A DNA stretch of 64,000 nucleotides. Source: Squalus acanthias (taxonomy: Eukaryota). Under the pieces are notes generated by a model. That model ran no database searches and had not been told where the DNA came from. It saw only the letters and a program-made list of their open reading frames with translations. The DNA lies in NCBI GenBank assembly GCA_030390025.1, contig CM059449.1:25792001-25856000 (forward strand), in the 5' to 3' direction. The stretch's first letter is position 1; each line of letters starts with the position of its first letter. A program made the translations under genes and the position numbers. Positions 6,373 to 58,700 of the stretch are shown here, one piece after another.

Positions 6373-6468
6373 GATATTTGATGTAAGGTGCAAAGATTGA
6401 AAATAATGTCACCACCATAGCAAGAATTATAGTTGATCGTATATTGGCTGCTGGTTCACATTCTTTAT
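6373..6468 (-). CDS. Hydrophobic (TM) exon of Ig-superfamily gene: (D)KECEPAANIRSTIILAMVVTLFSIFAPYIKY
   Basis: ctattggcag acceptor, gtaagt donor, 96 nt, phase 1-1, open, ~20-residue hydrophobic stretch. Confidence 0.7.
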
Positions 6469-6736
6469 CTGCCAATAGAGATCATCATGTCAATATCTGA
6501 ACTGCAGATCTAATCAGCACATTAGTTGGAAGACTGATTTATTATAGTATATTCAAAGCAAGTACAATAAGTATATGGTGTAACTTGTAGTCTTTGACTT
6601 GTGTACGACTTACAGGTCAGTAAAAAAATTAACTGTATCCTAATTAGAGGCCTCTCAGTTATATTAGCACCACTAGAAATCCTTGGCTCCCAACCTTTCC
6701 AGCTTGTATGATTATCTCCAATGCATTATCTCCAAG

Positions 6737-7037
6737 GCAACACGGTGGCATAGTGGTTAGCACTGTTGATTCACAGCGCCAGGGACCCGGGTTCGAATCC
6801 GGCCTCGGGTGACTGTCTGTGTGGAGTTTGCACATTCTCCCCGTGTCTGCGTGGGTTTCCTCTGGGTGCTCCGGTTTCCTCCCACAGTCCAAAGATGTGC
6901 GGGTTAGGTTGATTTGGCTATGATAGGGGGATTAAATACGTGGGGTTACGGGGATAGGGTGGGATATGTGTCGGTGCAGGCTCGATGGGCCGAAATGGCC
7001 TCTATCTGCACTGTGGGGATTCTGTGATTCTGTGATT
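6737..7037 (+). mobile_element. HE1-like V-SINE
   Basis: Same tRNA head and V-domain as the 4791 copy; tail GATTCTGTGATTCTGTGA. Confidence 0.88.
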
Positions 7038-7074
7038 TGGTATGATGTGCATCTCATTTTTATTACAAAATGAC

Positions 7075-7264
7075 TGGCCGGGACATTCTGTTTTTGCACT
7101 CTGGGCACAGCTCTAGGAGCATGAATCACGAAATTGTGCGTCTCCGGACCGTGATTTTCCAACCATTGATTTTAATTCTCTCAAAATCATGGGCGGCTGG
7201 TGCAGAATTTCCCAATGCTTGCTTCCAGGGTGGAAAGGAGCACTGAAGATGAAAATCCCGGCCA
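7075..7264. mobile_element. Short MITE-like element
   Basis: Imperfect terminal inverted repeats TGGCCGGGACATTC / GAAAATCCCGGCCA. Confidence 0.45.
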
Positions 7265-8037
7265 TCAGTAGGCATTTCTTGTTCATCACTCTTCAAATGT
7301 TTCGCTTCAAAAAATAAAGGAACATAGGCAGTCATCATTTGGAGTGTACGGAGAAACTCTGCAGGGACCGAAAATACCAGAGTCAGAATGTCTGCAGTCT
7401 CTTCATTGGCTTGTTCAAGAACTCACCCAGCATTTACTTAATAGCAATTAAGATTTTGTGGCCTAAAAGATTCACCTCAGCAGCAGAATAATACATGCTG
7501 TCCTTGTAAAACAGCATATTATCTGACGTACTGTGAGCAACGATACGGGAGATATGCTGGTAATGAGTCAATCTTTGATTACTGGTGACTGTGATATAAC
7601 TTTAGAAACTACAGCTGCCAATACTAGCAGATTAATAGTTAACTATTCAAATTTACAGCCAGGCACAAGAGCTTCACTCACTGGGAGAGCCCATTGTAAA
7701 TCCGCCACCATTTTCTGTCCATTAATTTTAATTGACGGAGAGCCGTGAGCAGCACGCACTTGGAGTTTACCCTTGGTGCTTTCGGTGAACCAAGCTCTGA
7801 CACTCTGACGCTGAAAAGGATCAGGTGTATCATGTTAATATGGCATTCCATTGTCTGCTATTTTAATGGAAGGGAGGTCAATCAGTTTAAAACTTGATAA
7901 AAACACTGCTTTATTCTCAGGGGATGGTGGGAGCGAACAAAACAATTAGCTTCACATAACATTCCATGGAACAGTTACAAATTAGTTAAGCTAAAATGCT
8001 CAATGCTTTGCCACAGGGAGTGGTTGAGATGGGAACT

Positions 8038-8915
8038 ATTAAGAACATAAGAAATAGGAGCGGGGTAGGCCATTTGCCGTTCAAGCCTGCTCCTTTTAAT
8101 GCAGTTTCCCGATCTACCATAGCCAACTCGCCCCTCATACCTACGTAGTTTGCTTTGTTTAGATTTAAGACCCTAGTTTTGAATTTAACTAAGTCACTTT
8201 CAAAATTAATATAAAATTCCATCATATTATGGTCACTCTTCCCTAAAGGCCCCTTTACTACAAGGTTATTAATTAACCCTTTCGCATTGCACAATACTAG
8301 ATCTAAAATAGCCTGTTCTCTAGTCGGTTCCTCAACATACTGATCTAGAAAACTATCTTGCATACATTCCATGAATTCGTCCTCCACACTATTACTGCAA
8401 ATTTGGTTTGCCCAGTCTATATGTAGATTAAAGTCCCCCATGATCACTATATTACCCTTGTTATATGCACCTCTAATTTCCTGATTAATACTCTGCCCTA
8501 CATTACAACTACTATTTGGGGAAAATAAACAACACCTATCAATGTTTTCTACCCCTTGCTGTTTCTGAGCTCCATCCAAACTGATTCTACTTCTTGATTT
8601 TCGGAGCTAAGATCCTTTCTCTCTACTGTCTTTATCCCATCCTTTATTATCAGGGCTACCCCTTCTCCTTTTCCATTTTGCCTATCTCTTCTAAAATTTA
8701 AGTATCCTGGAATATTTAGTTCCCAACCTTGGCCACTTTGCAACCACGTCTCCATTATGGCTATTAGATCAAACCTGTTAATTTCTATCTGCGCTATTAA
8801 TTAATCTATTTTGTTGCGAATGCTTTGCGCAGTCAGATATAGTGCCTTTAGCTTTGACTTATTTCTACTTTTCCCTGATGTCATCTTAGTCACTAATGCC
8901 TTATTACCTTCTTGA
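8038..8915 (-). mobile_element. CR1 endonuclease-domain fragment joined to a CR1 3' tail
   Basis: ETWLQ, MGDFNLHIDW, EEPTREQAILDLV and SDHN motifs in ORFs 8549-8755 and 7986-8579. Confidence 0.85.
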
Positions 8916-10082
8916 ATCGCTCAAGGGAAAATTGGATAAATATTTGCAGCAGTAGATGTAATATATTTGGATTTTCAATTTCAAACCAAACACCATTGTG
9001 GGGGCCCGTCACCACAAGGACTGCAGCCATTCTAGGAGAAGGCCCAGCACCAGCTTCTCGGGACAGCTAGGAGCTTGCAATGAATGGGACTGTGCCCTTG
9101 CTGACTACTCCCCCAGATCACAGGAAAGAAAGCTTAGTTGACAATAGGCCTCAATAAAGGCAAGTCATCTTTACTCAATGGTGATTTATGATGTGTGACT
9201 GGCTAGATAAAGGGAATCTTGAACAATCAAGCTTGCAGCGATTCTCTGTGGGGTCTGGCTAAGCTGTCTCACGGGTGGAATGAGGAACACAGTTGCAAGA
9301 ATTCCTGAGCATGGGACCAGTAATGAGGACCGCAGCAGATTGCAGAGAGATACAGACAGGTTAGGAAAGTTGACGGACAGGTGCAGCCTGCACATTAATA
9401 TGGACTGAGTTTGCAAACTCTGTGGAGGTCATGAAGGAGCGATGACATGGGGCTACCATGGCATTGCCACAGTTAGCAGGCGCAATGGCCTGGAGACTCA
9501 ATTGTCTCGGCGTGTGTGCACCCTGAAGGGAAATATGTTTCAACATGAATGTAGAGGGATTACAAGAAGTTGCTGGCAGTACTTAGTGAGGGGCCATCAA
9601 AAAGCGCACAGCCAGACTGGCAGGGTGTGTAGAAATGTGACTGTAGCTGCTGAACATCAGAAGTGGTGTGACGCAGCTTGGAGAAAAAGGGCCGGAGAGC
9701 GTTGATGCAGCTGGATCAAACAGACACTTTTTGTGGGAATGCAGACCTGCTGGTGTCAGAAGGCAGAGGACGAGTAGACATTATTCATTACAATTGACTC
9801 CTACTTCGTATGACGAAGTTATGACAGTGGATGGGAGCAGCTCCGAGGAAATTCACAACCGTAGTAAACTAGTTGGGTTTTTACAATAAAAAGAATTTTT
9901 TTTTTAATGCCAGCCCAAGAATTGCCAAATTTATTGAATTTAAATTCACAGATTGACAAAGTGAGATTGGAACTCACCCGAGTTCTTAGCCTAGTAAACA
10001 TACTACACTGGAATTTATTATGTCAGAAATACTGTATTGTAGAAATACAATTATCAACTGAAAGCAAAGAAACATACAGTAC

Positions 10083-10184
10083 CTTCAGTCCATATCCAAC
10101 ACACAAGTGCAGCAGAGAGACTCAGAAATGAAAGGATTGGGGCATACTGCAAGACTAGTAGTGTATTTTGAAGAAATGGAAGAC
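10083..10184 (-). CDS. Hydrophobic (TM) exon: LPFLQNTLLVLQYAPILSFLSLSAALVCWIWTE
   Basis: ttattgttccag acceptor, G|gtactg donor, 102 nt, phase 1-1, open; lies within ORF 10054-10236. Confidence 0.7.
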
Positions 10185-10384
10185 CTGGAACAATAAGCAA
10201 ATTTGTGTCAATATTACTCCAGCAAATAGTAGTCACACAATCAAAATAATAACTCCGTACAAAGGACCAAAATTTAAAATGGCATAGGCATCATATTTAA
10301 ATGTTTCACAGGTTTTTTTTTAATCAAATTGCAACATTTTTAAACTTTCAACACCAAATTGTGCAAATAACAAATTTCTCTTAC

Positions 10385-10486
10385 TTATTGTTTTGGTCTC
10401 AAACAAGATTGAAATCAAGGCAGCAGTAGAAGCAATCAATGCAGCAATTGTCAATCTCATTATGTACAAAGGCAGAAGTGGAAGAT
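10385..10486 (-). CDS. Hydrophobic (TM) exon: (D)LPLLPLYIMRLTIAALIASTAALISILFETKTI
   Basis: tttttctatttcag acceptor, gtaaga donor, 102 nt, phase 1-1, open. Confidence 0.75.
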
Positions 10487-10516: not shown

Positions 10517-11018
10517 GGGGGAAAAATTCAGTATCGCCCCGTTTGGGGTGCAATTATTGGCCGGGCGCAAAGATTAGCACCTGGCGCTAATTATCGCCTC
10601 CGACTGCAAACTTGACTTTTATCGCCCCTGGAGGTGATTGGAGCGCTAAATCAGGCGCTACACATCTGTCTTAAGGCGCAAAGGCAGAGGAGCGAGGCGC
10701 TAACTCAGAGCACTGGCGAAACTCATGTGATGTCAGTCAGCAATGGAACACAGACACAATGGCGCCGGCCAGTTCTTAAAGGGGTGGGTTGATCTTGCTT
10801 TCCATCCACATCCTGCTCATTGCAGCTTGGAATCTTGGCCTGGAGAGACCTGTACATCAAATCTGCTGGAAAGAACAATGGAGAGTACCAGGGAAAGAGC
10901 TCAGAGTGCAACCCCCACACTCTCTTCTAAATCGATACAAGGAAGGGCAAATCAAAATGAACCTGCAAAGTGCTGCTCAGTACCCAAAACTCCTTCACAC
11001 AGCGTTGAATCTCTCCAG

Positions 11019-11055
<37 letters not shown>

Positions 11056-11419
11056 CGTGGTTCAAAAATGTCACCAACAAAAAAAGGCAGGAAGCGGTCG
11101 CCTTTAAATAGCGCTCCCCCAGTCCCTTCCTGACTGCAAAACGCTTCCCTCAACCTGTTGTTGCTAGTGGCAGGCGGTAAGGCAGGGGGCGCCACTCAAT
11201 ATCCGCTCCAGGGCGCTACCGGGGCGTTGCGCACTCGACTGACGTCACGATCTGCTGGCGCAGGAGATCGTGGCGGTAGTGTTTAGCGCCGCCGCAAAAT
11301 GTCTAGTTAATTTCGCAAGTGGTGCAAACATCGCTGTGCCCGGGCGCTAGTTGCTTTGCGCCCCATTAGCGCCCTCTTAAGGCGCTAACGCGAGGCGCAA
11401 CCAACTGAATTTTTCCCCC
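10517..11419. mobile_element. ~900-bp non-autonomous DNA transposon (PIF/Harbinger-like MITE), copy A
   Basis: TIRs GGGGGAAAAATTCAGT / ACTGAATTTTTCCCCC, 3-bp ATG duplication; near-identical copy at 14798-18181. Confidence 0.8.
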
Positions 11420-11499
11420 ATGCCATTTTTAAATCAGATTACAAATTGCAAACAGGGAGTTTTTTTTTCCCCTTAAAAAAAGTGCGGATATCAAGGTCT

Positions 11500-11596
11500 T
11501 AGAAACATAGAAAAATAGGAGCAAGAGTAGGCCATTCGGCCCTTCGAGCCTGCTCCGCCATTCAATATGATCATGGCTGATCCTCTATCTCAATAA
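11500..11596 (-). mobile_element. CR1 3' tail that truncates the IgC2 exon
   Basis: GATCAGCCATGATCATATTGAATGGCGGAGCAGGCTCGAAGGGCCGAATGGCCTACTC on minus strand. Confidence 0.8.
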
Positions 11597-11600
11597 TATA

Positions 11601-11713
11601 TTCTTTTGTCCACAGAATGGAACTCGCATTGCCCGCCGACGCTTGACAGATCAGTTCAATGGTGGTATCCACATCGGTAGAATTACTGCTGATCAGAGGC
11701 TCAGACAGTGGTT
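11601..11713 (-). pseudogene. Truncated IgC2-type exon: (E)PLSEPLISSNSTDVDTTIELICQASAGNASSILWTKE
   Basis: C2-set start (P-x-I, LxC, W-x-K); expected acceptor cccacAG reads cccacAA; remainder replaced by CR1 tail. Confidence 0.7.
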
Positions 11714-14797: not shown

Positions 14798-17700
14798 GGG
14801 GGAGAAATTCAGTATCGCCCCATTTAGGGCGCAATTATCGGCCGGGCACAAAGATTAGCGCCTGGCGCTAATTATCGCCGCCGACTGCAAACTTGACTTT
14901 TATCGCTCCTGGAGGTGATTGGAGCGCTAAATCAGGCGCTACACATCTGTCTTAAGGCGCAAAGGCAGAGGAGTGAGGCGCTAACTCAGAGCGCTGGCGA
15001 AGCTCATGTGATGTCAGTCAGCAATGGAACACAGACACAATGGCGCCGGCCAGTTCTTAAAGGGGAGGGTTGATCTTGCTCTCCATCCACATCCTGCTCA
15101 TTGCAGCCTGGAATCTCGGCCTGGAGAGACCTGTACATCAAATCTGCTGGAAAGAACAATGGAGAGTACCAGGGAAAGAGCTCAGAGTGCAGCCCCCACA
15201 GTCTCTTCTAAATCGATACAAGGGCAAATCAAAATGAACCTGCAAAGTGCTGCTCAGTACCCAAAACTCCTTCACAGCGTTGAATCTCTCCAGAATTCTC
15301 TCTCTCTCTCTCTCTCTAGCAATCTAAAGGATTAATTAGCAATCTTGTTGTACGAGGCCCCTTGGGTCAGAGTGATCATAATATGATAGAATTCTTCATT
15401 AGGATGGAGAGTGAAGTAGTTAAATCAGAGACTAGGGTCCTGAATTTAAATAAAGGAAACTACGATGGTATGAGGCGCGAATTGGGTAGGATTGATTGGG
15501 GAATGTCACTCAAAGGGTTGACGGTGGATAGGCAATGGCAAATGTTCAAAGATTGCATGGATGAACTACAGAATTTGTTCATCCCAGTGTGGCATAAGAA
15601 TAAAACAAAAAGGGTGACTCAACCGTGGCTAACAAGGGAAATTAGGGATAGCATAAGATCCAAGGAGAGGGCATATAAATTGGCCAGAAAAAGCAGTAAC
15701 CCTGAGGATTGGGAGCAGTTTAGGATTCAACAAAGGATGACAAAGGGATTAATTAAGAAGGGGAAAATAGAATATGAAAGTAAGCTTGCAGGGAACATAA
15801 AAACTGACTGTAAGAGCTTTTATAGATATGTGAAGAGAAAAAGATTAGTGAAATCAAGTGTAGGTCCCTTGCAGTCAGAAGCGGGGGAAGTTATAATGGG
15901 GAACAAAGAAATGGCACACCAATTAAATGCATATTTTGGTTCTCTCTTCACAAAGGAGGACACAAATAACCTCCCAGAGATGTTGGAGAACATAGGGTCT
16001 GATGAAAGGGAGGAACTGAAACAAATCAGTATTTGCAGGGAAATGGTGTTAGGGAAATTGACGGGATTGAAGGCTGATAAATCCCCAGGGCCTGATAATC
16101 TACACCCTAGGGTACTTAAGGAAGTTGCCCTAGAAATAGTAGATGCATTGCTGATCATCTTCCAACATTCGATGGAATCTGGAACTGTACCCATGGATTG
16201 GAGGGTAGCTAATGTTACCCCACTATTCAAAAGGGGTGGTAGAGAGAAAACGGGGAATAACAGACCGGTAAGCCTGACATCAGTAGTGGGGAAAATGCTA
16301 GAGTCCATTATAAAGGATGCAATAGCTGAGCACTTGAAAAACAGTGACAGGATCGGACAAAGTCAACATGGATTTACAAAAGGTAAATCGTGCTTGACTA
16401 ATCTACTGGAATTTTTTGAGGATGTAACTGGGAAAATAGATAAGGGAGAACCAGTAGATGTGGTGTATTTGGACTTTCAATTGGCTTTCGATAAGGTCCC
16501 GCATAAGAAATTAGCGTGTAAAGTTAAGGCACATGGGATTGGGGGCAAGGTATTGACTTGGATAGAGAACTGGTTGGCGGGCAGAAAGCAGAGAGTAGGA
16601 ATTAATGGGTCTTTTTCCGAGTGGCAGGCAGGGACTAGTGGGGTACCGCAGGGATCGGTCCTTGGACCCCAGCTATTCACAATATACATTAATGATCTAG
16701 ATAAGGGAACTAAATGTAATATCTCCAAGTTTGCAGATGAGACAAAGCTGGGTGGGAGTGTGTGCTACGAGGAGGATACCGAGAAACTCCAGGATGATTT
16801 GGACAGGTTGGGTGAGTGGGCAGAAGCGTGGCAGATGCAATATAACGTGGATAAGTGCGAGGTTATCCACTTTGGTGTCAAAAACAGAAAGGCAGACTAT
16901 TATCTGAATGGCAATAGATTGGGAGAAGGGGAAGTGCAACGAGACCTGGGTGTCCTTGTGCACCAGTCGCTGAAGGTAAGCATGCAGGTGCAGCAGGCGG
17001 TGAAGAAGGCAAATGGTATGTTGGCCTTCATAGCGAAAGGGTTTGAGTATAGGAACAGGGATGTCCTGCTGCAGTTGTACAGGGCCTTGGTGAGACCACA
17101 CCTTGAGTACTGTGTGCAGTTTTGGTCGCCTTATCTGAGGAAGGATGTTCTTGCCATGGAAGGAGTTCAGCGAAGATTCACAAGGCTGATACCTGGGATG
17201 GCAGGAATGACATATGAGGAGAGATTGGGTCGATTGGGCTTTTACTCGCTGGAGTATAGAAGAATCAGAGGGGATCTCATCGAAACATATAAAATTCTGA
17301 CAGATCTGGACAAACGAGATGCAGGAAGAATGTTCCCGATGGTCGGAAAGTCCAGAACCAGGGGTCATAATCTAAGGATAAGGGGTAAGCCATGTAGGAC
17401 AGAAATGAGGAAGAATTTCTTCACCCAGAGAGTGGTGAACCTGTGGAATTCTCTACCACAGAAGGTAGTTGAGGCCAAGTCATTAAATATATTCAAGAAT
17501 GAGTTAGATATATTTCTTAAAGCTATAGGTATTAAGGGATATGGGGAGAAGGCAGGTACAGGGTACTGAGTTTGGACGATCAGCCATAATCTCATCGAAT
17601 CACGGAGCAGGCTCGAGGGGCCGAATGGCCTACTCCTGCTCCTATCTTCTAATACTCAAGATAGAGATCGTGACTTTTTTTTGGATATTAAGGTAATCAA

Positions 17701-18181
17701 GGCATCTGGGGATAATGCGGGAAAGCGGAGTTGAGGCAGAAGATCAGCCATGATCTTATTGAATGGCAGAGCAGGCTCGAAGGGCCGAATGGCCTACTCC
17801 TGCTCTTATTTCTTATGTTATGTTCAAAAATGTCACCAGCAAAAAAAGGCAGGAAGCGGTCGCCTTTAAATAGCGCTCCCCCAGTCCCTTCCTGACTGCA
17901 AAACGCTTCCCTCAACCTGTCGTTGCTAGCGGCAGGCGGTAAGGCAGGGGGCGCCACTCAATATCTGCTCCAGGGCACTACCGGGGCGTTGCGCACACGA
18001 CTGACGTCATGATCTGACGGCGCAGGAGATCGTGGCGGTAGTGTTTAGCGCCGCCGCAAAATGTCTAGTTAATTTCGCGAGCGGTGCAAACATCGCTGCG
18101 CACGGGCGCTAGTTGCTTTGCACCCCATTAGCGCCCTCTTAAGGCGCTAACGGGAGGCGCAACCAACTGAATTTTTCCCCC
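14798..18181. mobile_element. PIF/Harbinger-like MITE copy B, interrupted by CR1
   Basis: 14798-15320 and 17822-18181 match the two halves of 10517-11419; same TIRs. Confidence 0.85.
15321..17652 (+). mobile_element. 5'-truncated CR1 LINE with 735-aa uninterrupted ORF2 part
   Basis: ORF 15362-17569 spans the full RT; catalytic motif reads FADE instead of FADD; a second CR1 tail follows at ~17655-17821. Confidence 0.93.
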
Positions 18182-18877: not shown

Positions 18878-19183
18878 CAATGACCTGCAAATGTATTCTT
18901 GTTATCTTTTGTGCATCTATAGTGATGGTATAAACTCCTTCATCGCTGGCTTTTAAATTGTTTACCCTCAGAGACCCATTGGATGTATTAAAATATAAAC
19001 GAGATTTGAAATCTTCATTTAGTTTCACTTTATCGAGATTTGGTTTGTAATCTAAAATAGTAACAGCACTTTTGTTGCATGCGGTGAACTCCCATAGTAC
19101 TTCACTGTTGTTCAGATCAGCTCCATATTCAGGATCCAGTAAAACTGATGAACCAACCATATCAAACACTGCTTGCATTCCAG
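18878..19183 (-). CDS. IgV exon 1, CD2/SLAM/CEACAM-like (no canonical disulfide)
   Basis: ctatcag acceptor, G|gtaagt donor, 306 nt, phase 1-1; VGSSVLL, LWEF, FKSRL, NGSLRVNNLKASDEGVYTITI. Confidence 0.88.
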
Positions 19184-19315: not shown

Positions 19316-20121
19316 GGGCTGGATTTTCTCAATGGGAAGCTTTTGGAGGTGGGACTGCTGCTGGCCGGCTTTCAATCCCACCTCCATCAGCTTCTGGACA
19401 ACCAGCGAGATTTTCCCCGATTGACATCGTTAAGCCCGCCCAGCGGGCTCATCAGGCCAATTAAGGGGAAGCCAGTGACAGAGCACGTCAACGGGTCATC
19501 TGTCAAGAACTTTTGAAAGAAGAAATGTGAAGCTCTGTGAAGCTGTCAAACAATGACATTCTGTGTAGTTTGATGAGCCCTTGTGTTCAGGACTCATCAA
19601 ACCTTTCAACTTTACAGAAATCAGCTGGCTGTTCGGTCAGCGGATCCAACAGACAGTCTGTGATCTCTACAATGGAGATGTCGGGGACTACGGCTCCACA
19701 GCGGCTGAAGGCTGCAGGTGGAAACAAAGGTAAGTTAACATTTTCTAACACTTTACACTCACCTCACATACTTACCACTCCATAGTTGAACACATCACTC
19801 ACTTCTACATCGCACTTTCAGACCCCTCTGACTCCCGCAGACCTCCTATACCCTGGCGGGGATCCCCCAGGTCAGGAAGCTTGCACTTCAGCGCCAAAAA
19901 TGGGGAAAATCCTATTTTCTACCTGTTAATAGGCAGTTAATAGGCTTTAATCCCTTCCCACCTCCAAGGAGATGGGACCCAGGGCCGGGTGGCTTCCTGC
20001 CTCCTGGCAAGAGGGCACGCAGGCGGGTTGGGGCAGGTTTGCCATCCGCCCCAAAATTCTGCAACTTTCTAGGCAGTCCCGCCTCCATACCCGCTTCCTA
20101 GGGGCTGAGAAAATCCAGCCA
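19316..20121. mobile_element. 806-bp MITE present only in cassette 1
   Basis: TIRs GGGCTGGATTTTCTCA / TGAGAAAATCCAGCC; CAA TSD; empty site ACACCAAAGTTCTG at ~26430 and ~32750. Confidence 0.85.
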
Positions 20122-20394
20122 CAAAGTTCTGATTGGTCCCCTTGAAGGGCAAGACACACCCAGCAGTTTGTTTGGAATGAATAGTTGGAAACTGCCTGCC
20201 TGAGTAATCAAGTACTTTGCAATGTGTAACTTGAGCCATTCATTCTGTCTGCCAGGCTCCAGACACAGCTCACAGCACTGCTTTCAGAGAACAGACAGAG
20301 CTCACATTCGCGGGTTAGGAGCTTCTCCCCGTCCCCCAGTTCCTGAGCTTCCCCCACACCCCGAACAAGTTCCTGATCTTTCCCCTCTCCAACA

Positions 20395-24839: not shown

Positions 24840-24906
24840 CTTCGGGATCGCAAGGCCGGAGCAGCAGGAGGACGAGCAGCACCCACAAGGGTAACTGGTG
24901 CTCCAT
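24840..24906 (-). CDS. Signal-peptide exon 1: MEHQLPLWVLLVLLLLRPCDPE
   Basis: ATG, hydrophobic core, AAG|gtgagg donor; 67 nt (phase 1) joins in frame to IgV exon 1. Confidence 0.82.
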
Positions 24907-25996: not shown

Positions 25997-26302
25997 CAAT
26001 GATCTGCAAATCTATTCTTGTTATCTTTTGTGCATCTACAGTGATGGAATAAACTCCTTCATCGCTGGCTTTTAAATTGTTTACCCTCAGAGACCCATTG
26101 GATGTATTAAAATATAAACGAGATTTGAAATCTTCATTTGGTTTCACTTCATAGAGATTTGGTTTGTAATCCAAAATAGTAACAGCACTTTTGTTGCTTG
26201 CGGTGAACTCCCATAGTAATTCACTGTTGTTCAGATCAGCTCCATATTCAGGATACAATAAAACTGATAAACCAACCACACCAAACACTGCTTTCATTCC
26301 AT
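25997..26302 (-). CDS. IgV exon 2
   Basis: 306 nt, AG/GT intact, open; 17 nucleotide differences from exon 1. Confidence 0.82.
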
Positions 26303-31013: not shown

Positions 31014-31081
31014 CTTCCGAGATCGCAAGCCCGGAGCAGCAGGAGGACGAGCAGCACCCACAGGGGGAACTGGTGCTCCAT
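31014..31081 (-). pseudogene. Signal-peptide exon 2 with +1 frameshift (MEHQFPLWVLLVLLLLRACDLG)
   Basis: 68 nt instead of 67 (plus strand CTTCCGAGATC vs CTTCGAGATC); phase 2, out of frame with the IgV exon. Confidence 0.72.
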
Positions 31082-32313: not shown

Positions 32314-32619
32314 CAATGATCTGCAAATCTATTCTTGTTATCTTTTGTGCATCTATAGTGATGGAATAAACTCCTTCATCGCTGGCTTTCAAATTGTTTA
32401 CCCTCAGAGACCAATTGGATGTATTAAAATATAAACGAGATTTGAAATCTTCATTTGGTTTCACTTCATAGAGATTTGGTTTGTAATCCAAAATAGTAAC
32501 AGCACTTTTGTTGCTTGCGGTGAACTCCCATAGTACTTCACTGTTGCTCAGATCAGCTCCATATTCAGGATCCAGTAAAACTGATGAACCAACCACACCA
32601 AACACTACTTTCATTCCAT
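32314..32619 (-). CDS. IgV exon 3
   Basis: 306 nt, AG/GT intact, open; NGSL changed to NWSL. Confidence 0.82.
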
Positions 32620-39945: not shown

Positions 39946-40012
39946 CTTCGAGATCGCAAGGCCGGAGCAGCAGGAGGACAAGCAGCACCCACAGGGGGAA
40001 CTGGTGCTCCAT
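39946..40012 (-). CDS. Signal-peptide exon 3: MEHQFPLWVLLVLLLLRPCDLE
   Basis: 67 nt from ATG to AAG|gtgagg; in frame with IgV exon 3. Confidence 0.82.
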
Positions 40013-41943: not shown

Positions 41944-42249
41944 CAATGATCTGCAAATCTATTCTTGTTATCTTTTGTGCATCTATAGTGATGGAATAAA
42001 CTCCTTCATCGCTGGCTTTCAAATTGTTTACCCTCAGAGACCAATTGGATGTATTAAAATATAAACGAGATTTGAAATCTTCATTTGGTTTCACTTCATA
42101 GAGATTTTGTTTGTAATCCAAAATAGTAACAGCACTTTTGTTGCTTGCGGTGAACTCCCATAGTACTTCACTGTTGCTCAGATCAGCTCCATATTCAGGA
42201 TCCAGTAAAACTGATGAACCAACCACACCAAACACTACTTTCATTCCAG
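41944..42249 (-). CDS. IgV exon 4
   Basis: 306 nt, AG/GT intact, open; nearly identical to exon 3 (YKQN vs YKPN). Confidence 0.82.
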
Positions 42250-44547: not shown

Positions 44548-44819
44548 AAGTTCTGATTGGTCCCCTTGAAGGACATGACACACCCAGCAATTTGTTTGGA
44601 ATGAGTAGTTAGAAACTGCCTGCCTGAGTAACCAAGTACTTTGCAACGTGTAACTTGAGCCATTCATTCTGACTGCCAGGCTCCAGACGCAGCTCACAGC
44701 ACTGCTTTCAGAGAACAGACAGAGCTCACACTCGCGGGTTAGGAGCTTCTCCCCGTCCCCCAGTTCCTGAGCTTCCCCCACACCCCGAACAAGTTCCTGA
44801 TCTTTCCCCTCTCCAACAA

Positions 44820-45727: not shown

Positions 45728-45794
45728 CTTCGGGATCGCAAGGCCGGAGCAGCAGGAGGACGACCAGCACCCACAGGGGGAACTGGCGCTCCAT
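45728..45794 (-). CDS. Signal-peptide exon 4: MERQFPLWVLVVLLLLRPCDPE
   Basis: 67 nt from ATG to AAG|gtgagg; in frame with IgV exon 4. Confidence 0.82.
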
Positions 45795-52100: not shown

Positions 52101-52984
52101 TGTGAACACCCTCTTTCTCAAACCTTTCTCTCTCTCAAGTCCTTTTCTCCCTCAAGCCTCCTCTCTCACTAGCCCTCTCTCTTAACTCCCCTTCACTTTT
52201 AACCCACCTTCTCTTTCTCTTTACCTCCTACTCCTTACCTCCTCTTTGTACCCCTTCTTTTTCTCTAAGTATCTCTCTATCCTCCCCTCCCTTCCTACTC
52301 TTTCACCTCAAATAGGCTTTGTTTGCTTTTAAAACTCAACTTTTAAAAACATAGTACGAGGAAACATAATATTTCTGCCTTTCTATTTTTGTCTTTGTCT
52401 TTCTCTCTATCTCCCTCTGGCTCACAGATGTTAAATATTAGAACTTCTGTCTTATAGATGCAAGTGATTAGTATTGACCATTTCTATCCACAGAACACAA
52501 GTAAGATAATGAGTTGAATATGACTTTGGATGAGCAACCCTGTGGAATTGTTCTCAATGATTCCAGTTGACAATTTACGGACAACTTACAGAGATCAACA
52601 CATTACAGTGTTTAAGCAATAGTTTACAGCGTCAGACAAGACTTATATTATCTGTTCACACTGGACAGAGAAGCGTACGTCGACAGTTGAGTTCCCAGTT
52701 GTCTCTCATTCTGGGTCTTCTGTCTCTGCATCTTTCCATGGCTTGTGCAGCCCCCTTTATATTTTGTTTCTTGGGGGCTTGCGCCCCTGCTAGCCAGACA
52801 GTTCATCCTGTACACACTCTTTTGACCTTAATATCTTAATATCACTTGATCTCGGGCCCAGACAGTCTAACAGTCTTGAAACCACAATGTTCTGCTCCCC
52901 CAATCTCTATAATAGGGATGTGGTTAATGGGTAACGAGGTATAATGCTATCTGGTGCATTGGGATAAGGTCAGCAGATAACAAA

Positions 52985-55900
52985 GTCTAATACAGTTAGT
53001 GAGGAATGAAGTGTAATAGAGTTAGCGAGGAATGAAGTCTAATACAGTTAGTGGGGAATGAAGTCTAATAGTTAGTGAGGAATGAAGTCTAATACAGTTA
53101 GTGAGGAATGAAGTCTAATACAGTTAGTGAGGAATGAAGTCTAATACAGTTAGTGGGGAATGAAGTCTAATACAGTTAGTGAGGAATGAAGTCTAATACA
53201 GTTAGTGAGGAATGAAGTCTAATACAGTTAGTGAGGAATGAAGTCTAATACAGTTAGTGAGGAATGAAGTCTAATAGAGTTAGTGGGGAATGAAGTCTAA
53301 TACAGTTAGTGAGGAATGAAGTCTAATACAGTTAGTGGGGAATGAAGTCTAATACAGTTAGTGAGGAATGAAGTCTATTACAGTTAGTGAGGAATGAAGT
53401 CTAATACAGTTAGTGAGGAATGAAGTCTAATACAGTTAGTGAGGAATGAAGTCTAATACAGTTAGTGAGGAATGAAGTCTAATACAGTTAGTGAGGAATG
53501 AAGTCTAATACAGTTAGTGAGGAATGAAGTCTACTACAGTTAGTGAGGAATGAAGTCTAATACAGTTAGTGAGGAATGAAGTCTAATACAGTTAGTGGGG
53601 AATGAAGTCTAATACAGTTAGTGGGGAATGAAGTCTAATACAGTTAGTGGGGAATGAAGTCTAATACAGTTAGTGGGGAATGAAGTCTAATACAGTTAGT
53701 GAGGAATGAAGTCTAATACAGTTAGTGAGGAATGAAGTCTAATACAGTTAGTGAGGAATGAAGTCTAATACAGTTAGTGGGGAATGAAGTCTAATACAGT
53801 TAGTGAGGAATGAAGTCTAATACAGTTAGTGAGGAATGAAGTCTAATACAGTTAGTGAGGAATGAAGTCTAATACAGTTAGTGAGGAATGAAGTCTAATA
53901 CAGTTAGTGAGGAATGAAGTCTAATACAGTTAGTGGGGAATGAAGTCTAATACAGTTAGTGGGGAATGAAGTCTAATACAGTTAGTGAGGAATGAAGTCT
54001 AATACAGTTAGTGAGGAATGAAGTCTAATACAGTTAGTGAGGAATGAAGTCTAATACAGTTAGTGGGGAATGAAGTCTAATACAGTTAGTGAGGAATGAA
54101 GTCTAATACAGTTAGTGAGGAATGAAGTCTAATACAGTTAGTGAGGAATGAAGTCTAATACAGTTAGTGGGGAATGAAGTCTAATACAGTTAGTGGGGAA
54201 TGAAGTCTAATACAGTTAGTGAGGAATGAAGTCTAATACAGTTAGTGAGGAATGAAGTCTAATACAGTTAGTGAGGAATGAAGTCTAATACAGTTAGTGA
54301 GGAATGAAGTCTAATACAGTTAGTGAGGAATGAAGTCTAATACAGTTAGTGAGGAATGAAGTCTAATACAGTTAGTGAGGAATGAAGTCTAATACAGTTA
54401 GTGAGGAATGAAGTCTAATACAGTTAGTGGGGAATGAAGTCTAATACAGTTAGTGAGGAATGAAGTCTAATACAGTTAGTGAGGAATGAAGTCTAATAGA
54501 GTTATTGGGGAATGAAGTCTAATACAGTTAGTGAGCAATGAAGTCTAATACAGTTAGTGAGGAATGAAGTCTAATAGAGTTAGCGGTGAATGAAGTCTAA
54601 TACAGTTAGTGAGGAATGAAGTCTAATACAGTTAGTGAGGAATGAAGTCTAATACAGTTAGTGAGGAATGAAGTCTAATAGAGTTAGTGGGGAATGAAGT
54701 CTAATACAGTTAGTGAGGAATGAAGTCTAATACAGTTAGTGAGGAATGAAGTCTAATACAGTTAGTGAGGAATGAAGTCTAATACAGTTAGTGAGGAATG
54801 AAGTCTAATACAGTTAGTGGGGAATGAAGTCTAATACAGTTAGTGAGGAATGAAGTCTAATACAGTTAGTGAGGAATGAAGTCTAATACAGTTAGTGGGG
54901 AATGAAGTCTAATACAGTTAGTGAGGAATGAAGTCTAATACAGTTAGTGAGGAATGAAGTCTAATACAGTTTGTGGGGAATGAAGTCTAATACAGTTAGT
55001 GAGGAATGAAGTCTAATACAGTTAGTGAGGAATGAAGTCTAATACAGTTAGTGGGGAATGAAGTCTAATACAGTTAGTGGGGAATGAAGTCTAATACAGT
55101 TAGTGGGGAATGAAGTCTAATGGGCCGAAAATTGATCCCGGGACGCGAGAGTACGCACTGCGTACTCTCGCTTATTCCCACTCCAATTGCCGGTTTTCTG
55201 CATGCCCTGCGCATGCGCTGAAAACCTGCAATTGCTCTTCTGAAAAGAGGGCGGGTCCTCGGTGCATCGCGTGCGCGCTACAGGCTGCGCGCACGCTGTG
55301 CATTTCATGCTTTGGACGCGCAGGTAAGTACTGAAGATTTTGGAAATGTAAAAAGGAGGAGTAAGACCCACTTTTAAGAATGTAAGTAGTGAATTAAGTA
55401 TTTTTTTGAAATTTTTAACAGGTATATCTTTTTTAGAGACTTTAAAGACAGGTAAGTTTATTTTTATAACTTTTTAAAAGATTTTAAATTTTTTCAAAAA
55501 TTTTATTTTTTATTTAAAATGGTTAATTTAATTAACTATACTTATTTTATTAATGTGATGGTTTTTTTAAAAATTTAATTGAGGTTTAGCTGTTATTTTG
55601 GGGGGGTGTAAGATTCATAGATTTCACAGCAGGTCTGTGAAACTTATGAATGGAAGATGGTGTGCTGCCATTGGCTCTAACAGAGTCACGTGATCCCACA
55701 GCTCGCACGAATTCACTACGCCGGTGGGATACGCAAGCACTGCACAGCAGCTGTCCAGAACATCAAGTTCGTGCGAGCTGGATCTGAAAAAGCACAAGCG
55801 AGGTGAGACATCGCGGGGAAGGCTGACCCCCGCGGGAACAGAGCGAGATCAATTTCTGGGCCTAATACAGTTAGTGAGGAATGAAGTCTAATACAGTTAG

Positions 55901-58064
55901 TGGGGAATGAAGTCTAATACAGTTAGTGAGGAATGAAGTCTAATACAGTTAGTGAGGAATGAAGTCTATTACAGTTAGTGAGGAATGAAGTCTAATACAG
56001 TTAGTGGGGAATGAAGTCTAATACAGTTAGTGAGGAATGAAGTCTAATACAGTTAGTGAGGAATGAAGTCTAATACAGTTAGTGGGAATGAAGTCTAATA
56101 CAGTTAGTGAGGAATGAAGTCTAATACAGTTAGTGAGGAATGAAGTCTAATACAGTTAGTGAGAATGAAGTCTAATACAGTTAGTGAGGAATGAAGTCTA
56201 ATACAGTTAGTGAGGAATGAAGTCTAATACAGTTAGTGAGGAATGAAGTCTAATACAGTTAGTGAGGAATGAAGTCTAATACAGTTAGTGAGGAATGAAG
56301 TCTAATACAGTTAGTGGGAATGAAGTCTAATACAGTTAGTGAGGAATGAAGTCTAATACAGTTAGTGAGGAATGAAGTCTAATACAGTTAGTGAGGAATG
56401 AAGTCTAATACAGTTAGTGAGGAATGAAGTCTAATACAGTTAGTGAGGAATGAAGTCTAATACAGTTAGTGAGGAATGAAGTCTAATACAGTTAGTGGGG
56501 AATGAAGTCTAATACAGTTAGTGAGGAATGAAGTCTAATACAGTTAGTGAGGAATGAAGTCTAATACAGTTAGTGAGGAATGAAGTCTAATACAGTTAGT
56601 GAGGAATGAAGTCTAATACAGTTAGTGGGGAATGAAGTCTAATACAGTTAGTGAGGAATGAAGTCTAATACAGTTAGTGAGGAATGAAGACTAATACAGT
56701 TAGTGGGGAATGAAGTCTAATACAGTTAGTGAGGAATGAAGTCTAATACAGTTAGTGGGGAATGAAGTCTAATACAGTTAGTGAGGAATGAAGTCTAATA
56801 CAGTTAGTGAGGAATGAAGTCTAATACAGTTAGTGAGGAATGAAGTTAATATAGTTAGTGGGGAATGAAGTCTAATACAGTTAGTGGGGAATGAAGTCTA
56901 ATACAGTTAGTGGGGAATGAAGTTAATATAGTTAGTGGGGAATGAAGTCTAATACAGTTAGTGAGGAATGAAGTCTAATACAGTTAGTGAGGAATGAAGT
57001 CTAATACAGTTAGTGGGGAATGAAGTCTAATACAGTTGGTGGGGAATGAAGTCTAATACAGTTAGTGAGGAATGAAGTCTAATACAGTTAGTGAGGAATG
57101 AAGTCTAATACAGTTAGTGGGGAATGAAGTCTAATACAGTTAGTGGGGAATGAAGTCTAATACAGTTAGTGGGGAATGAAGTCTAATATAGTTAGTGGGG
57201 AATGAAGTCTAATACAGTTAGTGAGGAATGAAGTCTAATACAGTTAGTGAGGAATGAAGTCTAATACAGTTAGTGGGGAATGAAGTCTAATACAGTTAGT
57301 GAGGAATGAAGTCTAATACAGTTAGTGAGGAATGAAGTCTAATACAGTTAGTGGGGAATGAAGTCTAATACAGTTAGTGGGGAATGAAGTCTAATACAGT
57401 TAGTGGGGAATGAAGTCTAATACAGTTAGTGAGGAATGAAGTCTAATACAGTTAGTGAGGAATGAAGTCTAATACAGTTAGTGAGGAATGAAGTCTAATA
57501 CAGTTAGTGAGGAATGAAGTCTAATACAGTTAGTGGGGAATGAAGTCTAATACAGTTAGTGGGGAATGAAGTTAATATAGTTAGTGGGGAATGAAGTCTA
57601 ATACAGTTAGTGAGGAATGAAGTCTAATACAGTTAGTGAGGAATGAAGTCTAATACAGTTAGTGAGGAATGAAGACTAATACAGTTAGTGGGGAATGAAG
57701 TCTAATACAGTTAGTGAGGAATGAAGTCTAATACAGTTAGTGGGGAATGAAGTCTAATACAGTTAGTGAGGAATGAAGTCTAATACAGTTAGTGAGGAAT
57801 GAAGTCTAATACAGTTAGTGAGGAATGAAGTTAATATAGTTAGTGGGGAATGAAGTCTAATACAGTTAGTGGGGAATGAAGTCTAATAGAGTTAGTGGGG
57901 AATGAAGTTAATATAGTTAGTGGGGAATGAAGTCTAATACAGTTAGTGAGGAATGAAGTCTAATACAGTTAGTGAGGAATGAAGTCTAATACAGTTAGTG
58001 GGGAATGAAGTCTAATACAGTTAGTGGGGAATGAAGTCTAATACAGTTAGTGAGGAATGAAGTC
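52985..58064. repeat. 26-bp tandem satellite AATACAGTTAGTG(A/G)GGAATGAAGTCT
   Basis: Two blocks, 52985-55121 and 55863-58064, of highly homogeneous units. Confidence 0.97.
55122..55862. mobile_element. MITE inserted in the satellite
   Basis: TIRs GGGCCGAAAATTGATC / GATCAATTTCTGGGCC; TAA(T) duplicated at the insertion point. Confidence 0.82.
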
Positions 58065-58065
58065 T

Positions 58066-58700
58066 TTGTACCTTTGACCAGTTTCTGTATTGGTTCCGCT
58101 AGGGTGGTATATTGGGGTATAAAGTTCCGACTGTAATTAAATAATCCCAGCACCTTTCGTACCCCTCTTACATTTACAGGCCTTGGCATGTCCCTAATGG
58201 CCTGTCTTCGCTCCTCCGTCATTTCTTTCTGTCCCCTACTTATCCAGTGCCCCAAATATTGTACTCGTTTTCGGGCTATCTGGGCTTTCCGGGGTGAGGC
58301 TTTAAACCCTGTCTTTCTCAGGGCTCCCAACACCTTAGTTAGGGCTCGTAAATGGCTTTCCATGTTTGGGGATGCTATTAACAGGTCATCTACATATTGG
58401 GTGATGGTACTTTCTTCTGGTTTCAAGTCCAGCTTTTCCATGGCTTCTGCCATTGCTTGGTGAAAAATTGCCGGGCTGTTGTGGAATCCCTGAGGTAACC
58501 AGGTCCACGTATATTGTTGATTTCCTACTGTGAATGCAAATTTGTCCTGGGACTCTTGGTCCAAGGGCAAACTCCAGAACTCATTTGCTATATCTAACAC
58601 CGTAAACACTTCGGCCTTAGGGTCTAGGTCATGTAGGATGGTGGACGGGTTCGCCACTATCGGATATTGTCGCGGAGTTATCTTATTCAATGCGGTCTAC
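58066..58700 (-). mobile_element. pol: Endogenous retrovirus pol fragment (reverse transcriptase)
   Basis: VLDIANEFWSLPL, FAFT, YTWTWLPQGFHNSPAIF, YVDDLLI, KAQI..VQYLGH retroviral RT motifs. Confidence 0.88.

Follow-up and report, generated by a model that had tools for sequence, protein, structure and literature searches.

In the window analysed here (the whole stretch of 64,000 nucleotides from Squalus acanthias), three short exons on the minus strand (10486-10385, 10184-10083, and 6468-6373) each encode a hydrophobic segment, while further exons encode parts of an immunoglobulin-type ectodomain. What kind of protein do these exons represent, and does the locus still encode it? The original prediction was a CD2/SLAM-type ectodomain attached to a multi-pass membrane domain. 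We consider it probable that the exons encode helices 1, 2, and 5 in a damaged, likely pseudogenic copy of a gene from a family of jawed vertebrates with a leader, IgV, IgC2, and five predicted membrane helices. Members of this family would be adhesion or recognition receptors of the cell surface, in which a disulfide is predicted to pin the C2 domain to the last outer loop. The window's own copy is of lesser importance than the family.

Three hydrophobic exons

The three exons are flanked by AG/GT and open in a phase 1-1 frame, as originally described, with peak 19-residue Kyte-Doolittle (KD) means of 2.03, 1.85, and 2.06 for exons 1, 2, and 3, respectively. The helix 1 exon (10385..10486, minus strand, 102 nt) is in frame and about four codons shorter than in close homologs. 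The helix 2 exon (10083..10184, minus strand, 102 nt) keeps the W..EG motif of the family and is 68-69% identical to the Heptranchias protein P0001, while the third exon (6373..6468, minus strand, 96 nt) encodes the last outer loop with its conserved cysteine together with helix 5. The motifs CWIWTEG and DKECEPA are present in the membrane exons. When the whole window was scanned on both strands for exons of this kind (84-129 nt in multiples of three, KD ≥ 1.8; criteria chosen after the exons had been seen), these three and no others were returned. The third exon was not picked up by a stricter scan; its acceptor is weak (0.1 bits versus 2.3 and 3.5 bits for the other two).

Searched singly against Pfam, the three membrane exons matched no family. 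With shark homologs as tblastn queries, all three were matched in the correct order (best E: exon 2, 4e-9; exon 3, 2e-5; exon 1, 2e-3), which supports the exons independently of the scan. All of the few conserved columns in exons 2 and 3 are matched (the helix 1 row was misaligned and dropped). By these matches, the exons correspond to helices 1, 2, and 5 of a five-helix family. The suspicion that further transmembrane exons had been lost between 10083 and 6468 agrees with the homologs, according to which the missing segments are helices 3 and 4.

A five-helix family of jawed vertebrates

Intact homologs consist of a leader, a cysteine-free IgV domain, an IgC2 domain, and five hydrophobic segments. 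The proposed junction of an Ig ectodomain with a multi-pass domain is thereby borne out, and the homologs show five hydrophobic segments instead of the single transmembrane segment that the original prediction had named as contrary evidence. A search with the V exon gave 21 longer shark proteins among 142 candidates; behind their Ig domains (KD ≥ 1.6), 12 have five hydrophobic segments, eight have four, and one has six, most of the four-segment proteins being isoforms that skip a single exon. Annotated isoforms lose single helices as blocks of 28-41 aa, one of which, with 34 aa, equals the 102-nt exon 2 of the window. A membrane-only profile yielded 47 matches with E ≤ 1e-3 among 1.84 billion representatives, one of them a spurious repeat.

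The 30 proteins whose taxa were looked up come from chimaera, rays, sharks, Pleurodeles, axolotl, caecilian, turtles, birds, echidna, and platypus. Named members include chicken LOC422295 and platypus LOC100681856; no teleost or therian is among the named members. Going by these sequence matches, this uncharacterised family is not shark-specific and reaches amphibians, turtles, birds, and monotremes. Its domain order is constant from chimaera to platypus, and across 29 proteins the V domain has no conserved cysteine and the C2 cysteine pair is invariant. Most of the homologs are gene predictions. Whole turtle proteins of 470 aa are found on Logan contigs of 1.5-2.6 kb, and galliform proteins of 394-452 aa on Logan contigs of 1.3-1.6 kb; such whole proteins on short assembled contigs are consistent with splicing in the relatives.

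Searches with the membrane domains gave nothing near the curated cut-off in Pfam and nothing meaningful in NCBIfam, and the membrane part had no usable match in the ESM Atlas. The whole chicken protein matched a chordate cluster of 110 members there (probably its own), followed by generic V+C2 proteins.

Predicted membrane topology and disulfide tether

The AlphaFold2 model (pLDDT 84, pTM 0.79, 52 sequences) has five long helices. The inner loops carry on average 3.1 and 3.8 Lys and Arg residues versus 0.4 and 1.9 in the outer loops, and the topology would be five-pass with the N-terminus outside and the C-terminus inside. The tails are short; an ITSM occurs in 0/36 of them and an ITIM-like motif in 1/36, with tail boundaries that are crude and misplaced in 2/36. 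Because the tails are short and without tyrosine motifs, signalling might proceed through partners that associate laterally with the helices. Fold searches of the membrane domain return generic helical bundles. The best whole-length match is cytochrome b561/STEAP (Z ~10, rmsd 4.0-4.5 Å over ~172 residues); its Z lies below ~13, the level typical of generic helical bundles with this tool. No histidine column is conserved inside the family helices, so heme binding is unlikely. The cytochrome b561 fold matches were rejected as noise, as were the sequence matches to Na/K-ATPase (E 0.3).

An extra cysteine of the C2 domain sits beside the F-strand motif, and its predicted partner lies in the last outer loop. 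Among 47 aligned proteins with both columns, 45 have both cysteines, two have lost both, and none has lost only one. A larger set comprises 150 distinct proteins, many of them isoforms or near-copies; 127 have both columns, with 123 C/C, two double losses, and two single losses (P0036, a degenerate model, and P0040, whose model ends before helix 5). In a quick tree, the two double losses fall on separate well-supported branches, and the chance overlap of the losses is about 0.001. Since the two cysteines are kept together and were lost together twice independently, a CD47-type tether is predicted, i.e., the C2 domain is likely disulfide-pinned to the last outer loop. As in CD47, such a disulfide would set how high and at what angle the ectodomain stands. 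V domains of the CD2 and CEACAM types bind a partner on another cell, and the distal V domain of the family may do so as well.

Comparison with other Ig receptors

A distal V domain without the canonical cysteine pair, followed by a C2 domain, defines the CD2/SLAM receptors. The family resembles CD2/SLAM, CEACAM, and HEPACAM in its cysteine-free distal V followed by C2. The Pfam matches include V-set and, weakly, Receptor_2B4. CEACAM5, CEACAM1, and CEACAM6 are the best of the PDB sequence matches covering V and C2 together, in keeping with the N-type V plus C2 layout of CEACAM, while CD48 and a CD48/CD2 chimera match the family V. The proposed CD2/SLAM-type ectodomain is retained as a CD2/CEACAM-type V+C2, but not as membership. 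CD2/SLAM and HEPACAM receptors are single-pass or GPI-linked, and signalling CD2/SLAM members carry the cytoplasmic ITSM TxYxxV/I; the five hydrophobic helices of the homologs and the absence of an ITSM from all 36 tails speak against CD2/SLAM membership. CEACAM proteins, which have one transmembrane domain or a GPI anchor according to PMC4079198, likewise differ from the five helices of the family.

Skint1 is another Ig receptor with several helices: PMC4861494 gives it IgV, IgC, three helices, and a short tail. The family shares this general layout, and both belong to expanded multigene families. However, the V domain of Skint1 is B7-like with a Cys49-Cys123 disulfide, whereas the V domain of the family has no cysteine pair, and three helices stand against five in the intact members. 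The family was not assigned to Skint on these two grounds.

Leader and IgV cassettes

The ectodomain exons lie outside 6373..10486 and comprise four leaders, four V exons, and one truncated C2 exon, all on the minus strand. Leader (signal peptide) exon copy 1 (45728..45794) has 67 nt and phase 1. IgV exon copy 1 (41944..42249, 306 nt) is open and has no cysteine; it carries G>W at a glycine that is invariant in 29/29 aligned homologs. Leader copy 2 lies at 39946..40012, and IgV copy 2 (32314..32619) differs from IgV copy 1 by one coding change and has the same G>W. Leader copy 3 (31014..31081, 68 nt) is one base too long and hence out of frame with the V exons, while IgV copy 3 (25997..26302) has two changes at conserved positions, S>L and D>Y. 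Closest of the leaders to the membrane exons is copy 4 (24840..24906); IgV copy 4 (18878..19183; Pfam V-set, E 2e-8) carries P>L where 12 shark homologs are invariant and is the only V copy with a cysteine. Open frames are kept by 4/4 V exons, 3/4 leaders, and all three helix exons.

Among the V copies pN is at least equal to pS, with 13-14 nonsynonymous to 2 synonymous changes between V4 and the others, and the introns flanking the V copies are 1.5-8% different. The changes fit neutrality in a test based on few changes (binomial p 0.55-0.75). No sign of purifying selection is seen on the quadruplicated leader and V exons; pN > pS is also consistent with diversifying selection. In the V copies, 6-7 of 40 conserved columns are not matched, which is high, yet within the family leave-one-out range of 1-12.

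Damage at the locus

Of the IgC2 exon, a 5' remnant of about 38 codons is left (11601..11713, minus strand). Its acceptor (11715-11714) reads AA, and the 3' half is absent, including the second canonical cysteine and the extra cysteine. Directly after the break follows the 3' end of a CR1-type LINE (11498..11593, minus strand), which shares 85-92% identity with the ends of further copies within the window. A MITE-like element with 16-bp terminal inverted repeats (10517..11419, no strand assigned) occupies the C2-TM1 intron. The 3.6-kb intron (6469..10082, minus strand) is the expected site of the helix 3 and 4 exons, neither of which was found; it contains a LINE endonuclease fragment (ORF 7986-8606). 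In six frames, HMM and tblastn searches of the window matched neither the 3' half of C2 nor helix 3, helix 4, or the tail. Past 6373, the end of exon 3, read-through stops two codons into the intron, and no tail exon was found further down the window; it could lie beyond the window's end. LINEs and near-identical segmental copies are abundant in the window as a whole.

When leader 4, V4, and the three helix exons are spliced in silico, they form an open frame of 226 aa with three hydrophobic peaks. From 10 to 29% of the V-exon words occur in eight contig runs of two studies, the run type being guessed; these values speak neither for nor against expression. The window's copy is damaged and most likely a pseudogene and decaying paralog; less probably, it would give a three-pass product. 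The proposed Ig receptor with at least three transmembrane segments holds for the family, which is predicted to be five-pass, while the copy in the window, damaged in C2, is probably not working. In sharks, the family may have expanded by duplication and loss, the window's copy being one of the losses.

Alternative explanations and relation to CD47

The locus might instead be alive and encode a shortened receptor with IgV and three helices, in which the dead C2 is skipped, helices 3 and 4 have been lost as a pair, and the leader+V cassettes provide alternative V domains for one shared membrane module. The open 226-aa splice would fit such a receptor, as would the phase 1-1 frames and AG/GT sites of all retained exons; joint loss of the adjacent helices 3 and 4 would leave the topology unchanged, the cysteine gained by V4 could, speculatively, pair with the retained loop cysteine, and gene models with V and five transmembrane segments but no C2 exist in other species (P0027, P0042, and P0053). 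We nevertheless regard it as unlikely in view of the three separate lesions and the frameshifted leader, the changed invariant residues of V, the lack of a purifying signal and of a tail exon, and the homolog sequences read, none of which, by inspection, lacks both helices 3 and 4 while having 1, 2, and 5. Very improbable is an intact gene in the animal whose missing pieces reflect an assembly error: the abundance of repeats and segmental copies would favour such errors, but the window contains no N, the C2 break adjoins a recognisable LINE end, the C2 acceptor has a point change of its own, and two deletions would need two errors. It is barely credible, and largely refuted, that the hydrophobic exons come from a different gene or form alternative single-pass ends, with the homolog models fused by annotation software. 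Most homolog records are indeed predictions, and isoforms skipping single helices exist; against fusion stand the same domain order from chimaera to platypus, the whole proteins on short Logan contigs, and the cysteine loss coupled across both parts.

If the window's exons are, as preferred here, remnants of a five-helix family, the closest comparison is CD47, which PMC8410850 presents as unique among immune-system receptors in having five transmembrane segments and for which that paper found no similar fold. CD47 binds SIRP-type receptors as a marker of self. The family shares the overall design of CD47 (five helices below an Ig ectodomain, a short tail, and a loop 2 cysteine; in the family, the helices and the tether are predicted), built with an ectodomain of the CD2/CEACAM type. 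No Pfam family matches its membrane domain, and the window copy retains three helices versus five in CD47. A distant but true homology (a shared five-helix domain, with a second Ig domain carried by the family) instead of an independent origin would account for the equal helix number and for a predicted tether cysteine in the same loop as C245 of CD47, which PMC8410850 and PMC10902115 assign to extracellular loop 2. Moreover, a goatpox CD47 model ranked sixth in a viral fold search, at a non-significant level (E 0.38, TM 0.31, rmsd 19 Å). We judge this homology improbable: CD47 has a single IgV with an internal disulfide and its tether cysteine is C15 of that domain, whereas the family has V + C2, the Ig-side cysteine in C2, and a distal V without a cysteine pair. 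The family further differs from CD47 in being multi-copy in sharks and in having no named therian member. The CD47 transmembrane family, for which the Pfam copy searched presumably contains a model, is absent from the matches of 12 membrane domains (E up to 10) and of 9 further proteins (E up to 5), and Pfam V-set_CD47 gave a sub-threshold match on one C2 only (E 0.045). No CD47 chain is among the PDB sequence matches, and CD47 is not among the 50 matches listed in two wide VIA searches, two Foldseek PDB searches, and a further VIA run, which is not proof that the folds differ.

A wider reading, offered tentatively, is that the family represents a second, independently evolved Ig + five-helix system of jawed vertebrates. 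It would have converged on the tethered design of CD47, serve cell-cell or self recognition, form a diversifying array in sharks, and survive in amphibians, turtles, birds, and monotremes after loss in marsupials, placentals, and teleosts; the leader+V cassettes of the window may feed one shortened three-helix module. The family would show whether evolution came twice upon the tethering of Ig domains to helix bundles, and its chicken and axolotl members open topology, tether, ligand, and function to direct tests.

In the literature searched, mostly the main text of open-access papers, the family was not found described, and six LOC identifiers occurred in no paper. The automatic names of its members in the databases (HEPACAM-like, CD48-like, CD276, 2B4-like, and VEGFR-like) are misleading. 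Surveys of CEA or SLAM may list some members in their supplementary tables.

Domain architecture and distribution of the family

Re-reading of the sequence bears out the original prediction of three open phase 1-1 exons with AG/GT bounds, each with a hydrophobic stretch, on the minus strand (10486-10385 and 10184-10083, 102 nt each, and 6468-6373, 96 nt). A hydrophobic-exon scan of both strands of the whole window, with thresholds chosen only after the exons had been seen, returned these three and no others; the acceptor of the third is weak, and a stricter scan missed it. A search with a V exon of the window identified 21 longer proteins, spread over seven genera of sharks. Full-length shark proteins contain a leader, V, C2, and then five hydrophobic segments, the window exons corresponding to segments 1, 2, and 5.

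A further profile was restricted to the membrane part and built from 12 shark sequences. Run against 1.84 billion representatives, it gave 47 matches at E <= 1e-3, including one spurious repeat. Named members among the 30 of these 47 looked up come from cartilaginous fish (chimaera, stingrays, devil rays, and many sharks), amphibians (Pleurodeles, axolotl, and a caecilian), reptiles and birds (turtles, gulls, pigeon, rhea, and chicken LOC422295), and monotremes (echidna and platypus LOC100681856). They include no teleost, squamate, frog, marsupial, or placental, although a shark-based profile and an insensitive word search cannot establish absence. A turtle-based search added 27 family proteins, from turtles and birds only. 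Five Mustelus family loci share one chromosome, and other sharks likewise have several loci on a common chromosome; this means co-location and does not imply tandem order.

Five Logan contigs (1.5-2.6 kb) each contain a whole 470-aa turtle family protein, and four others (1.3-1.6 kb) contain galliform family proteins of 394-452 aa; because of their size, the contigs appear to be RNA-derived. Some annotated family isoforms are devoid of single helices, and the missing blocks (28-41 residues) match one symmetric exon per helix. In relatives of the window copy, the Ig and membrane parts are likely spliced together. The V or C2 domain is duplicated in some shark members, giving V-V-C2 or V-C2-C2 ectodomains ahead of the membrane helices (the stored proteins P0001 from Heptranchias, P0012, P0025, and P0049). 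Two divergent members, P0059 and P0060 (Pristiophorus and Mustelus), continue beyond the membrane domain with a long Thr/Ser-rich region and an unrelated C-terminal part, and may be fused gene models.

Family proteins are already present in databases as predictions with automatic names, and no paper describing the family turned up in the literature searches. We conclude that the family belongs to the rare kind of receptor that joins Ig and multi-pass parts, with an unclassified five-helix domain.

Predicted membrane topology and tether

The AlphaFold2 model of the turtle membrane domain (52 sequences; pLDDT 84, pTM 0.79) has a short inner helix in addition to five long ones, and the shark model, from a shallower alignment, agrees with it (pLDDT 72). 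Basic residues obey the positive-inside rule for an N-out, C-in topology.

Two cysteines are conserved beyond the canonical C2 pair: the first precedes the F-strand Cys by five residues, and the second lies in the loop that connects helix 4 to helix 5. Of the aligned proteins, 47 cover both columns; 45 of these retain the two cysteines, two have lost both, and none has lost just one. Both columns are present in 127 of 150 distinct stored proteins: 123 keep both, two have lost both, and two have a single cysteine (P0036 and P0040, incomplete models). In a quick tree, the double losses, Mustelus P0014 and Cetorhinus P0030, sit on two different branches that are both supported; the probability of the two losses overlapping by chance is ~0.001, for rows that are not independent. 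Judging from this conservation, a disulfide is predicted to join C2 to the last outer loop.

Comparison with known families

The V+C2 ectodomain type is common to the family and CD2/SLAM, CEACAM, and HEPACAM, yet identity with any of these is rejected, as they are single-pass or GPI-linked. For CEACAM, this is stated in PMC4079198. Skint, with a Cys pair in its V domain and three helices according to PMC4861494, is rejected on both features. In overall design the family resembles CD47, whose C15-C245 disulfide into extracellular loop 2 is needed for SIRP-alpha binding and signalling, as described in PMC8410850 and PMC10902115. However, the family has two Ig domains and sequence searches with its membrane domain gave no CD47 match, leaving CD47 membership unsupported. 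The best rows of a fold comparison of the membrane domain are generic bundles. Third in a viral fold search was an uncharacterised 394-aa kangaroopox protein (A0A2C9DSG2; E 0.22, TM 0.40, not significant).

Proposed mode of action

Anatomy, together with what V domains of the CD2 and CEACAM types are known to do, points to a likely mode of action: a glycosylated surface receptor would bind a partner on a facing cell through its distal V domain, while the tether would hold the ectodomain at a fixed angle. The nine ectodomains counted have 3-7 sequons each. Since ITSM occurs in none of 36 tails and an ITIM-like motif in one, signalling would proceed via membrane partners of the helix bundle.

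State of the window copy

Upstream of the membrane exons, on the minus strand, lie four leader exons (starts 45794, 40012, 31081, and 24906) and four V exons of 306 nt (starts 42249, 32619, 26302, and 19183), 64-70% identical to the closest proteins, those of Heptranchias and Pristiophorus. The leader+V units form near-identical segmental copies; V copies 1 and 2 differ at a single coding base, which makes the duplication recent. The arrangement of four units before one shared downstream module (18500-46300) resembles variable first-exon cassettes. The C2 exon (start 11713, minus strand) is a remnant with an AA acceptor; its homology ends after ~38 codons, where a LINE directly adjoins it with its 3' end. 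The rest of the intron is largely taken up by a MITE-like element (10517-11419) bounded by 16-bp terminal inverted repeats. Neither profiles nor tblastn detected, in any frame, the 3' half of C2, either of two further helix exons, or a tail exon, and the same searches recovered V, the C2 5' half, and exons 1-3 as positive controls.

The window copy is probably a pseudogene: it lacks half of C2, and with that half the tether Cys, as well as helices 3 and 4, and has no visible tail; one leader exon is frameshifted; and the V copies have changes at residues that are invariant elsewhere and differ from one another with pN >= pS, the pattern expected of neutral DNA. Against this, the leftover exons can be joined in silico into an open frame of 226 residues encoding V and three helices, and the V-copy changes behind pN >= pS are few; a live three-pass variant seems unlikely. 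A conserved-column comparison with the family gave no clear separation. The copy nearest the membrane exons, V4 (18878-19183), is the sole V copy with a gained cysteine (S35C), while the C2 cysteine that would normally pair with the one in the loop has been deleted; the coincidence may be fortuitous.

Repeats and other elements

The window is LINE-rich vertebrate DNA and contains no N; the closeness of its exons to the Heptranchias and Pristiophorus proteins marks it as probable shark DNA. A second copy of the MITE-like element (14798-18181), also with 16-bp terminal inverted repeats, is split by a LINE whose open reverse transcriptase frame (15320-17569) is 749 aa long. Within the duplicated unit, a short stretch containing CWVC (~20120-20260 and ~44560-44700, minus strand), which we take to resemble a retroviral envelope motif, had no support in the Pfam search. 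Another reverse transcriptase fragment (57995-58696, minus strand; Pfam RVT_1, E 7e-31) has a YVDD motif and is, by that motif, presumably of LTR-element or retroviral type. Two long tandem arrays with a unit of roughly 26 bp, ~97% alike, occupy 52983-58065.
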